NCBI GenBank assembly: GCA_019897865.1
Contig: GCA_019897865.1_4532.1
Reading direction: 5' to 3' (one strand)
Origin: a phage
Length of the DNA: 64,000 nucleotides
Shown in pieces: positions 6,309 through 9,082 of this stretch. A model generated the notes under the pieces. That model had not been told where the DNA came from and searched no databases. It saw only the letters and a list, made by a program, of their open reading frames with translations. Within the stretch, counting starts at the first letter, position 1; each line of letters begins with the position of its first letter. The position numbers and the translations under genes are program-made.

Positions 6309-6602
6309 TCACATTAAGACACGTTTTGTATCGATGGGTGCATTATCAAACATGTTAAGAACATTGTCAAGCAGTTTTACTAATTCATTTGTAATTTGTT
6401 CTTTTGAACGGGAGGAAGTGAGCACTTTGCTTTCACCAACGATATGCATAACTTTTATAGGAGCATCTAAAATAATGTTGTGCTGACGATCCTCTTCAAA
6501 AGAAGCCAACCATTTCTCGTTGTTACCGTGTAAGGCTACAATGACACCAAAACCGTTAATTGTCTCAGAAATATTCTTAGTTGCTAAAGTAATGTTCATC
6601 AT
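6309..6602 (-). CDS. hypothetical protein (first gene of leftward operon)
   Basis: 97-aa ORF; tandem ATG ATG preceded by GAGGT. Confidence 0.5.
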   Translation of the reverse strand: MMNITLATKNISETINGFGVIVALHGNNEKWLASFEEDRQHNIILDAPIKVMHIVGESKVLTSSRSKEQITNELVKLLDNVLNMFDNAPIDTKRVLM

Positions 6603-6627
6603 CTACCTCTCTTGTTAATGTTCATAT

Positions 6628-6686
6628 ATGATACCTGAAAATAATTTCAGATCAAGTATTGACATGCTTTTTAGTCCTGTTAAGAT
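6628..6686. promoter_or_regulatory. Divergent sigma70-like promoters: rightward TTGACA-N16-TGnTAAGAT, leftward TTGATC-N16-TATCAT
   Basis: Rightward -35 at 6659-6664, -10 at 6681-6686 with TG at 6678-6679; leftward -35 is rc of 6650-6655, -10 is rc of 6628-6633. Confidence 0.5.
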
Positions 6687-6716
6687 CAACTCATACAAAA
6701 CAAGAGGAGAAAACAA

Positions 6717-7151
6717 ATGCAAAACATCAAACTAACTTGGACCGAAGCTAAAGAAGCAATGAAGGAAGGTAGACGTGTTGAGCACAGTTATTTTTGCGGT
6801 GGTGAATGGTTTGAGATGCGAGATGGTGTTATTCTCGACGAACAAGGTTATAACATGGAAACTTGGTTCAGAGGGGAAGCTTGGCAGGAAGAGGGTTGGT
6901 CTGTAATTGAAAAAGAAGACAGTAAGGAAGAAGGCGTGTTGTCTAATGTAGAACGCAAGATGAGGGAAACAAAGATACCTGCTTTGGATTTTGTATACCT
7001 GGAAGAACTTGTGGCAGCATCTTTTGTAGCAGGAAATCTTTGGAATACACCTGTTAGCCGACTGGAGAACCAAAATAACCCATCTGCTCGTAATCACAAG
7101 CTTTATAAGGGTAAAGGTCACAACAAATTAAAGAAAGGAAAGAAGAAATGA
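6717..7151 (+). CDS. hypothetical protein; N-terminal region weakly DUF2829/Tad2-like
   Basis: 144 aa; EAKEAMKEGRRV...GEAWQEEGWSV pattern; lysine-rich tail. Confidence 0.5.
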   Translation: MQNIKLTWTEAKEAMKEGRRVEHSYFCGGEWFEMRDGVILDEQGYNMETWFRGEAWQEEGWSVIEKEDSKEEGVLSNVERKMRETKIPALDFVYLEELVAASFVAGNLWNTPVSRLENQNNPSARNHKLYKGKGHNKLKKGKKK

Positions 7152-8081: not shown

Positions 8082-8397
8082 CAAAGAACCACATGTATAC
8101 ACTGCACTGGTAAAGCACTTGAACAAAGAACGTAACAAGATCATTGCAGATTATCGTAAATTTAAACGTAGTAGTCTAAATCGTAAATACATGCCACATG
8201 CAGCTTTTGACGCTACACGTGCAGTGTTTCGTGCAAAGATTGCAGAAATGGATAATCTGCTTAAGCTTGCACGATTATCTATTCAGGCATCCAAAGTAAC
8301 AGGAGTCACTCACTTCTTTGACTTCGATACTAAAGCACTATATGCACCAGAAGCAGGTGAACAATTGATTTATCTACTTACCAAAAATAAGTGTTGA
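8074..8397 (+). CDS. hypothetical protein
   Basis: Track ORF 8041..8397; ATG at 8074 preceded by GAGGAG. Confidence 0.5.
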   Translation: MANKEPHVYTALVKHLNKERNKIIADYRKFKRSSLNRKYMPHAAFDATRAVFRAKIAEMDNLLKLARLSIQASKVTGVTHFFDFDTKALYAPEAGEQLIYLLTKNKC

Positions 8398-8439
8398 CTT
8401 TTTTCAAAAAATATGCTACCCTAACCCCGAAGGGTCGAG

Positions 8440-8548
8440 CGATAGCGAGTATAGATTATGTAATAGATTAATCTCTATCGTTAGATGTTCGAAGAACAGA
8501 GATTTAAGTACTTGTTCTTATCGGTAGATGATCGTAAGATCAAGAACA
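8440..8548 (+). promoter_or_regulatory. Repeat-rich intergenic control region (direct and inverted repeats, candidate weak promoter TTGTTC-N17-TAAGAT)
   Basis: cgatag/ctatcg inverted repeat; tagatta x2; tcgttagatgttcg vs tcggtagatgatcg direct repeat; aagaaca at 8492-8498 and 8542-8548 with inverted copy at 8513-8519. Confidence 0.4.
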
Positions 8549-8566
8549 ATAATAGGAGAGTGTGTT

Positions 8567-8764
8567 ATGTTAGTCAGTGAAATACTACCTGACTCTAATG
8601 GTAATCAGATCACTATTGATTGGTTTCCTGGTACTGGTACACTAGATCTAACTGCTGAATGGTCTGGTGATATTTATGGAGAAGGTGTATTATCCTTGTC
8701 TACAGAACAAATGATCATCCTTCGTGACTTCTTAATTAGTTTAGATCTAGGAGAAAACAAATGA
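8567..8764 (+). CDS. hypothetical protein
   Basis: Track ORF 8528..8764; ATG at 8567 preceded by AGGAGAG. Confidence 0.45.
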   Translation: MLVSEILPDSNGNQITIDWFPGTGTLDLTAEWSGDIYGEGVLSLSTEQMIILRDFLISLDLGENK

Positions 8765-9030
8765 GTAAAACTTCTGTTGAGTTTATCGAGAAATCCCCTG
8801 TTCCAAAGTTATACCGTTTATCTGAAATTGAACCTATGTCTGTTTTCTATTACTACAACTCAGAAGTAAATGAACAAGAACGGGACTACTACTTAGCTAC
8901 AGATACAGGTGCAGTTTGCTTAACAGGTTCTCGTGCAGGAGAATACATTGCAAATAGTCGTTTTAATGAAGCAGATTCCTGTTGGGCTAAGGTTGAAACT
9001 AAGATCGTCATCAACATCATCAATCATTAA
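8761..9030 (+). CDS. hypothetical protein
   Basis: 89-aa ORF overlapping upstream stop. Confidence 0.5.
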   Translation: MSKTSVEFIEKSPVPKLYRLSEIEPMSVFYYYNSEVNEQERDYYLATDTGAVCLTGSRAGEYIANSRFNEADSCWAKVETKIVINIINH

Positions 9031-9052
9031 GATTAATCTCACAAAGAGTTAC

Positions 9053-9082
9053 TTGACATGTGCAAAGCTCTTTGTGTAGAAT
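9053..9082 (+). promoter_or_regulatory. sigma70-like promoter TTGACA-N18-TAGAAT overlapped by an 8-bp inverted repeat
   Basis: -35 at 9053-9058, -10 at 9077-9082; acaaagag (9041-9048) and ctctttgt (9068-9075) are reverse complements. Confidence 0.5.

Follow-up and report, generated by a model that had tools for sequence, protein, structure and literature searches.

A conserved promoter-like module with strand-specific hairpins in an intergenic gap of Phapecoctavirus phages

We analysed a 64,000-nucleotide (nt) stretch of phage DNA (contig GCA_019897865.1_4532.1, the window hereafter) and examined the region at 8398–8566, a genuine non-coding gap of 169 bp within a plus-strand cluster of small genes. 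The surrounding 1.8 kb was 99.9% identical to Escherichia phage ESCO13 and to other Phapecoctavirus genomes (phAPEC8 group, Stephanstirmvirinae). The gap probably represents an early promoter followed by a transcribed, structured leader for the two genes at 8567–9030, which encode proteins of 65 and 89 amino acids (aa). This reading is carried by a promoter-like anatomy that, from the alignments, is conserved across genera, and by hairpins that are specific to one strand and whose sequences point to structural selection. Promoter activity of 8394–8422 and action of the hairpins as RNA are what we infer from them.

A first-pass annotation of this DNA had described the gap as resembling an operator or iteron array, packed with repeats and holding a weak promoter-like sequence, TTGTTC(8512)-N17-TAAGAT(8540). 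This sequence is present; it agrees with the consensus at 7 of 12 positions, lies below the scan threshold and was found in one lineage only. The promoter proposed here, which was absent from that annotation, is a sigma70-type TTGACT-17 nt-TGcTACCCT at 8394–8422 that overlaps the upstream stop codon and lies partly outside 8398–8566. Since only 3 of 6 positions of its -10 hexamer TACCCT match TATAAT, below the scan threshold, the consensus promoter scan omitted it. Transcription is predicted, from the usual spacing, to start at about 8429–8430. As a speculation, the CCC-centred -10 could make the promoter weak alone, or dependent on supercoiling or on a factor. The view of the gap as constrained regulatory non-coding DNA holding a promoter was borne out, although the promoter named was the wrong one and the operator or iteron reading was only partly supported.

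Low-stringency BLAST searches recovered 8390–8468 at ~80% identity in phi92-like phages (Justusliebigvirus) and in one Klebsiella phage, with no DNA match for the flanking genes, and 8474–8554 at 90% identity in phiWec phages. The block common to the aligned lineages consists of TTGACT, a 17–18-nt spacer with a T-tract and an A-tract, TG-N-TACCCTA, 11–16 variable bases and CGAGCG-N(1-3)-AGCGAG. The last element forms a core hairpin with a 2-bp G-C stem, a G...A loop, tandem G.A pairs and a closing C-G. We refer to this ~60-nt promoter plus core hairpin as the module. It is found in 2–3 copies per genome across Stephanstirmvirinae, whose genomes are ~150 kb; BLAST with a 59-nt module hit two places in each Phapecoctavirus record and three in each phi92-like record, and the module was 100% identical in 87 phage records. 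Three paralogous positions were recognised, denoted by c1, c2 and c3, where c1 is the gap at 8398–8566, upstream of small genes and the sole copy within the window. The core hairpin is also unique within the window. A host origin of the module was rejected, since a search of 5,426 complete E. coli genomes gave no match.

Viral, genome and metagenome collections were scanned with sequence patterns, and 52 distinct instances remained after filtering for the -35. As the scan patterns required TACCCTA and GAGCG..AGCGAG, the invariance of these letters and of the core stem is partly imposed; copies found by BLAST or synteny carry them too. In the genome-contig scan the 18 specified bases were too few, with nearly all matches due to chance, and it was useful only after the -35 filter. 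The -35 was TTGACT in 31 instances, TTTACT in 11, TTGACA in 9 and TTTACA in 1, so that, at the sequence level, its variation in the family is confined to promoter-compatible forms. The spacer was 17 nt long in 41 instances and 18 nt in 10, the sole exception being a parse artefact; T is enriched at the -35 end of the spacer and A immediately ahead of the TG, while the middle varies. A TG upstream of the -10 was present in all 52 instances, a feature that the metagenome search pattern required. The TACCCT -10, preceded by TGC, TGG or TGA, was present in copies that BLAST or synteny recovered from four lineages and three genomic positions, and these copies also keep the -35, the 17–18-nt spacing and the TG. 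The loop of the core hairpin was GAA (24 instances), GATA (16), GCA (7), GAAA (2), GGGA (2) or GTAA (1). A protein-anchored search for more distant c1 loci returned near-identical contigs only.

Among seven close relatives, 3 of 195 columns were variable in the gap, compared to 22 of 354 and 31 of 202 in the flanking coding sequences, and the module had zero variable columns in relatives whose flanking coding sequences vary at 6–15% of columns. The gap is under stronger constraint than both flanking genes. Comparison of phiWec179 with phiWec190 showed that promoter and leader stay together even where the next gene has been lost. The gene missing from phiWec179 is the 198-nt first gene (equivalent to window 8550–8770); the deletion edge lies exactly at the Shine-Dalgarno GAGGAG and the leader is fused to the start of the next gene, a pattern suggestive of recombination between two ribosome-binding sites.

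Six C-G(N)NA-G mini-hairpins, each with at least one further pair, were detected in the gap on the plus strand and 0 on the minus strand (Table 1). Against a background of 1.36 per kb, six were reached in 0 of 5000 shuffles, and the gap is the densest 169-nt stretch of the window. The same asymmetry was found in the family, with a mean of 2.0 mini-hairpins on the plus strand and 0.16 on the minus strand in the first 170 nt. Seven were counted in the phiWec c1 copy, including one within a lineage-specific insertion. Two of the mini-hairpins in the gap, GCGATAGC and CCCGAAGGG, agree with the sequence definition of DNA mini-hairpins (GCG-N(1-2)-AGC, or C-GAA-G closed by G-C/C-G), and four further C-G(N)NA-G hairpins accompany them. 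GCGNAGC and GCGNNAGC were described as "extraordinarily stable" DNA mini-hairpins, with much less stable RNA versions, and such mini-hairpins were described at the priming origins of G4, St-1 and alpha3, at ssiA of RSF1010 (CCGAAGG) and at the N4 early promoters (PMC13037366).

Downstream of the core, a 16-nt direct repeat forms the inner part of two tandem hairpin units, A and B. In the alignment of the window type with the phiWec type, 98.6% of the cells of the two units pair, compared to 34–51% for slid controls. All pairs of the unit A outer stem are kept in the phiWec lineage, two of them changed on both sides (AU to GC and CG to UA), and in unit B a C to U change in KKP 3954 leaves a G.U pair. 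The c1 copies of the Klebsiella phage and of the phi92-like phages have, at the same place, a single long hairpin with the apex C-GUA-G or C-GUUA-G. Both sides are changed in five of its pairs, pairing reaches 100% and 97.5% in its helices, and its covariation of 0.231 exceeds that of shuffles (0.076; 0 of 500) and of slid controls (at most 0.043). Judged by these alignments, covariation is stronger for this hairpin than for units A and B. U.G pairs in the leader stems are tolerated on the plus strand only. The plus-strand fold of the gap, a check proposed in the first-pass annotation, gave z = -3.07. Unit B, which contains the weak TTGTTC-N17-TAAGAT, had a fold z of -2.2 and ends 6 nt before the Shine-Dalgarno sequence. 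It is annotated as a terminator by WebGeSTer in the record of phage ASO2A; our scan detected no intrinsic terminator on the plus strand. The unit is rich in A and U, and the sequence after it, UAAUAGGAG, has no U-tract.

The repeats listed in the first-pass annotation were all found, and the limits that it gave to the gap agree with the stop codon at 8395–8397 and the ATG at 8567. A CGATAG/CTATCG inverted repeat lies at 8440–8445 and 8475–8480, and the two TAGATTA copies occur as ATAGATTA ((A)TAGATTA) at 8451–8458 and 8463–8470. The direct repeat, reported as 14 nt, is in fact 16 nt long (TATCGTTAGATGTTCG at 8476–8491 and TATCGGTAGATGATCG at 8519–8534, 14 of 16 positions identical). AAGAACA (8492–8498) and TGTTCTT (8513–8519) form an inverted repeat, and the additional AAGAACA copy is at 8542–8548. 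Conservation in related phages, which had been suggested as a check, was partial: the 16-nt repeats are kept in the phiWec type and are absent as sequence from the phi92-like and Klebsiella-phage copies. Counts of exact 6–8-mer direct and inverted repeats were within the range of dinucleotide shuffles (P 0.07–0.2); the 16-nt repeat pattern, expected 0.19 times per 64 kb, was observed twice, 43 nt apart. A minimal start-stop open reading frame (ORF), ATG TAA, at 8458–8463 lies in the linker between the TAGATTA copies, in the segment that is replaced in the phiWec lineage, and is probably due to chance.

Table 1 Coordinates of the features in and around the gap, and of the paralogous copies c2 and c3
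Feature	Position	Strand	Description
Upstream ORF stop	TGA 8395–8397	+	Read from the sequence
-35 hexamer TTGACT	8394–8399	+	5/6 vs TTGACA; contains the TGA of the upstream gene (8395–8397)
17-nt spacer	8400–8416	+	T-tract, A-tract, then TG 8414–8415 (extended -10, TGc); from alignment of lineages
-10 hexamer TACCCT	8417–8422	+	T-12, A-11 and T-7 kept; CCC centre unusual
Mini-hairpin 1	8426–8434	+	CCCGAAGGG, CCC-GAA-GGG (CCGAAGG type), spans predicted start; varies among copies, often ACGAAGT
Core hairpin C-GA-GC-[GAUA]-GC-GA-G	8436–8449	+	GCGNNAGC mini-hairpin, tandem G.A pairs, closing C-G; hallmark of the module
Mini-hairpin 2	8439–8446	+	GCGATAGC
Variable linker with two (A)TAGATTA copies	8450–8469	+	Replaced in the phiWec lineage by a segment with its own CCC-GTTA-GGG hairpin
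Unit A	8470–8504	+	Outer stem AAUCUCU/AGAGAUU around AUC-GUUA-GAU and GUUC-GAA-GAAC; holds direct-repeat copy 1; energetically better alternative pairing with 8436–8458
Mini-hairpin 3	8477–8486	+	ATCGTTAGAT
Mini-hairpin 4	8486–8498	+	TGTTCGAAGAACA
Unit B	8512–8549	+	Outer stem UUGUUCUU/AAGAACAA around AUC-GGUA-GAU and GAUC-GUAA-GAUC; holds direct-repeat copy 2
Mini-hairpin 5	8520–8529	+	ATCGGTAGAT
Mini-hairpin 6	8529–8542	+	TGATCGTAAGATCA
Shine-Dalgarno AGGAGAG and start codon of the 65-aa gene	8555–8561; ATG 8567–8569	+	Read from the sequence
c2 in phage 10C3_SA_NWU (same phage type)	L016 2050–2216		TGG before TACCCT; then hairpin GUUUCAU...AUGAAAC enclosing CUCAC-GAUA-GUGAG
c3 in phage Schickermooser (99.9% window type)	L241 430–735		

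The 65-aa protein gave a full-length match to phrog_25113 (function unknown). In the phage type of the window, c2 is located in a 360-bp gap of an all-minus-strand gene cluster, in antisense orientation and with a conserved hairpin downstream; it lies ~27 kb upstream of c1 in phage nieznany and is a candidate for a non-coding or antisense RNA. The c3 copy, which is ~75 kb from c1 in phage Ro121c4YLVW, is in a 477-bp divergent intergenic region, with five GTACT repeats and two pure A/T blocks of ~40 nt downstream of the module. Of the sites seen in this phage type, it looks most like an origin.

The module was also detected in the chromosomes of Citrobacter sp. OP27 and of a Scandinavium metagenome-assembled genome (MAG), and in related contigs (L041 1821–8575; L123, L117, L202, L231 and L232). 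In these islands an integrase-like gene precedes the module, which stands at the head of ~900 nt of conserved non-coding DNA; the genes downstream include those for endonuclease VII and a primase-like DUF5906 protein. The islands match the phages over the module alone and are absent from complete E. coli genomes. These integrase-bearing islands may be satellites of Stephanstirmvirinae phages. Apart from the module, the genome-contig matches revealed that many unrelated bacteria carry, as a dispersed repeat, the 13-nt core CGAGCG-N-AGCGAG with covarying flanking stems (L083, L088, L114, L119, L130, L138, L149, L168, L173 and others). One example reads TGTCATTCC-GAGCGAAGCGAG-GGAATCT, another, from a Planctomycetaceae MAG, GCTCCGCGAGGC-GAGCGCAGCGAG-CCGAAGCGGAGC, and no Rfam family matches this repeat.

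Further sigma70-like promoters were identified at 6659 and 9053, in gaps of the same gene cluster as c1. The former, TTGACA-N16-(TG)TAAGAT at 6659–6686, is in the region 6602–6717, where minus- and plus-strand gene clusters diverge and where the cumulative GC skew has its minimum. The -35 and spacer of the latter, TTGACA(9053)-N18-TAGAAT(9082), are bracketed by a perfect 9-bp inverted repeat, CACAAAGAG (9040–9048) and CTCTTTGTG (9068–9076), and 9040–9082 could be a stem-loop/promoter composite or an operator.

In the mechanism that we propose for the gap, host sigma70 RNA polymerase would bind TTGACT(8394)-17 nt-TGc-TACCCT(8422) and initiate near 8429–8430, and the hairpin C-GA-GC-GAUA-GC-GA-G would form within the first ~20 transcribed bases. 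The following ~100 nt would fold into the two tandem units, each an outer stem around two C-G(N)NA-G mini-hairpins. The hairpins would act in cis on the plus strand, RNA being the likeliest substrate, and perhaps they protect or process the message, shield the ribosome site from read-through transcripts, or control elongation or termination.

Several points weigh against an early promoter with a leader acting as RNA. The transcript start is a prediction only, and with a CCC centre and a 3/6 match at the -10 the promoter may be weak or need a factor. Mini-hairpin 1 would not be an RNA structure, because the predicted start falls inside 8426–8434. GAUA, GUUA and GGUA, which are frequent among the loops, do not belong to the GNRA type and fit instead the DNA mini-hairpin rule GCGN(N)AGC, of which the RNA forms are much less stable than the DNA forms (PMC13037366). 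The covariation of units A and B comes from a single sister lineage, and their two-unit fold, at -16.9 kcal/mol, is to be set against a competing minimum-energy fold of -31.9 kcal/mol. The latter, which is also the RNAalifold consensus, joins the core motif (8436–8448) to the first repeat and TAGATTA to TAATCT; it had no covariation support in the alignment. Moreover, the paralogous c2 is antisense in its minus-strand gene cluster, without a gene to lead, and the search patterns account for part of the invariance of TACCCTA and GAGCG..AGCGAG.

Hairpins placed strictly on one strand would also suit a transcription-primed origin or a single-strand priming signal, at which transcription opens the DNA or forms an R-loop, and the displaced plus strand folds GCGN(N)AGC mini-hairpins that exclude single-stranded DNA-binding protein and recruit primase or a primosome. 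Such a site would resemble G4 and ssiA, or else T4 oriF/oriG and ColE1, at which replication is primed by a transcript from a promoter. The definition of DNA mini-hairpins fits the core and five other hairpins exactly, and the RNA forms of such hairpins are much weaker (PMC13037366). The first transcribed bases are G-rich (GAAGGG...GCGAG(GGG)), and there are 2–3 copies only per ~150-kb genome. The c3 region with its GTACT repeats and A/T blocks, and the island module, which heads ~900 nt of non-coding DNA upstream of the primase-like DUF5906 gene, point in the same direction. However, c1 leads straight into a ribosome site and a gene. It has no A/T-rich unwinding block or iterons and no DnaA box at up to 2 mismatches, and its A+T content is 64% vs 61% for the window. 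The GC-skew minimum is at the 6602–6717 divergence point and tracks gene orientation, and the stem covariation is equally compatible with RNA and single-stranded DNA. We consider a priming site unlikely as the explanation of the gap. An iteron-type origin, which would have at least 3 tandem direct repeats of ~17–22 bp, was rejected: the gap has two copies only of the 16-nt repeat, 43 nt apart, with no A/T-rich block, DnaA box or adjacent replication gene, and the proteins encoded beside it have unknown function, with no recognised initiator gene.

Double-stranded operator or iteron sites, formed by the 16-nt repeats and AAGAACA/TGTTCTT and bound by a phage early regulator or replication initiator, would agree with the strong constraint on the gap, with the 43-bp distance between the repeats, about four helical turns, and with the sequence kept between the window and phiWec types. 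This is very unlikely, as pairing is kept where the sequence changed, both in the unit A outer stem and in the homologous hairpin of the sister lineages. The motifs are on one strand only, the repeat sequence is absent from the phi92-like and Klebsiella-phage copies, where a hairpin is found instead, and only two copies are present, with no neighbouring regulator or replication gene recognised. The repeats thus behave as strand-specific hairpin stems rather than as sequence-conserved protein sites. Somewhat less improbable, and still quite unlikely, is that transcripts mostly stop at unit B and give a ~120-nt trans-acting RNA, or that read-through is set by a nut/put-like factor at the 5′ hairpin. 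The c2 copy has its own conserved hairpin and no downstream gene, the leader hairpin of the Klebsiella phage is followed by UUUUCUUUU, like an intrinsic terminator, unit B carries its terminator label in ASO2A, and a promoter-proximal hairpin in 2–3 copies per genome recalls lambda nutL/nutR and HK022 putL/putR. On the other hand, UAAUAGGAG after unit B provides no U-tract and the scan gave no plus-strand terminator; there is no boxA in the gap, c2:c1 RNA complementarity was not significant (z about 0), no N- or Q-like protein was identified and Rfam gave no match. Chance repeats in a spacer that merely separates two genes, with which the exact k-mer counts would be in line (P 0.07–0.2), are hardly credible, being contradicted by the conservation above that of the flanking genes, the cross-genus module, the mini-hairpin enrichment and the compensatory changes.

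A broader and more tentative proposal, which we regard as possible rather than probable, is that the module is a dedicated, undescribed control element of Stephanstirmvirinae that a factor specific to phage or host would read. Its role would be that of a transcription-primed site of replication or priming, acting through mini-hairpins of the non-template strand, or that of a nut/put-like site of elongation control, and it would have been captured by the Citrobacter and Scandinavium islands to time their own non-coding RNA or replication module to infection by these phages.

Other identities were examined and rejected. In phiWec phages, a 31-aa ORF at 8485–8580 has a shifted frame and lacks the ATG, which excludes a small protein gene in the gap. 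The minus-strand terminator-like match at 8435–8418 is merely the reverse of the CCCGAAGGG element and the A/T tracts of the spacer. For the c2 RNA as an antisense of the c1 leader, duplex energies were equal to those of shuffles. In the core hairpin, the bulge and the G.A pairs are in the wrong order for a K-turn. MotA-box, sigma32, sigmaE and sigma28 promoters were, by eye, unsuitable in spacing or sequence, and the likeness to a sigmaS-like -10 (GCTAcnCT) is a resemblance only. A lambda-type nut site was excluded, as no boxA (CGCUCUUA-like) was found at up to 3 mismatches and the hairpin loops are of 3–4 nt and not a GNRA-like pentaloop. None of the Rfam 15 covariance models matched any module copy at or near the gathering score, and they detected unrelated tRNAs only.

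The closest architectural analogue of the module is the promoter-early stem-loop (PeSL) cassette of T4-like phages (PMC2839356, PMC4122927). Both have a conserved sigma70-type early promoter, a predicted one in the module, and a stem-loop, are repeated in the genome among small ORFs of unknown function, and are found at boundaries of gene gain or loss, here in phiWec179 vs phiWec190. However, the module is present in 2–3 copies per genome and not in dozens, its hairpin is downstream of the -10, in the transcribed region, its -10 is TACCCT instead of TAYWAT or TATAAT, and its hairpin has a fixed 14-nt core. The module shares with lambda nut (boxA/boxB) and HK022 put a short conserved G...A-loop hairpin just after early promoters in 2–3 copies per genome, with terminator-like hairpins downstream in some copies. 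It differs from them in that it has no boxA, its stem and loop are not those of boxB, the promoter is part of the conserved unit and one copy has no downstream genes. We know of no N-like protein in these phages.

The core GCGAUAGC and CCGAAGG match the defining sequences of the complementary-strand origins of G4, St-1 and alpha3, of RSF1010 ssiA and of the N4 early promoters (PMC13037366), and, as in those systems, the hairpins of the module are on one strand and at an initiation region. Unlike the module, which is in duplex DNA behind a sigma70-type promoter, those systems work on single-stranded DNA, in ssDNA phages or in plasmids, or depend on the N4 virion polymerase. To our knowledge, this phage group lacks an N4 virion polymerase. 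The promoter-primed origins T4 oriF/oriG, ColE1 RNA II and the T7 primary origin also send a promoter transcript into non-coding DNA and occur in few copies, and c3 has A/T-rich blocks downstream of its promoter as they do, whereas an A/T-rich unwinding element is lacking at c1, which runs directly into a gene.

By its sequence, the element is a repeated promoter-plus-hairpin cassette with an unexplained conserved TACCCT/mini-hairpin core. PhAPEC8- and phi92-type phages are widely isolated as therapy candidates; full-text literature searches gave no description of the motif, and no transcript map, transcriptome or replication origin of the phage group. Since the ~60-nt cassette is conserved across genera, lies at three fixed places per genome and is shared with chromosomal islands, it offers a concrete handle on early regulation in these phages. 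A link of the module to replication initiation and to chromosomal islands is possible, and the module may also give access to the sites where replication starts and to satellite-like elements by which these phages are exploited. In addition, the module would provide a natural double-stranded-phage context for GCGN(N)AGC mini-hairpins, which have hitherto been tied mainly to origins of single-stranded DNA phages, ssiA and N4 promoters.

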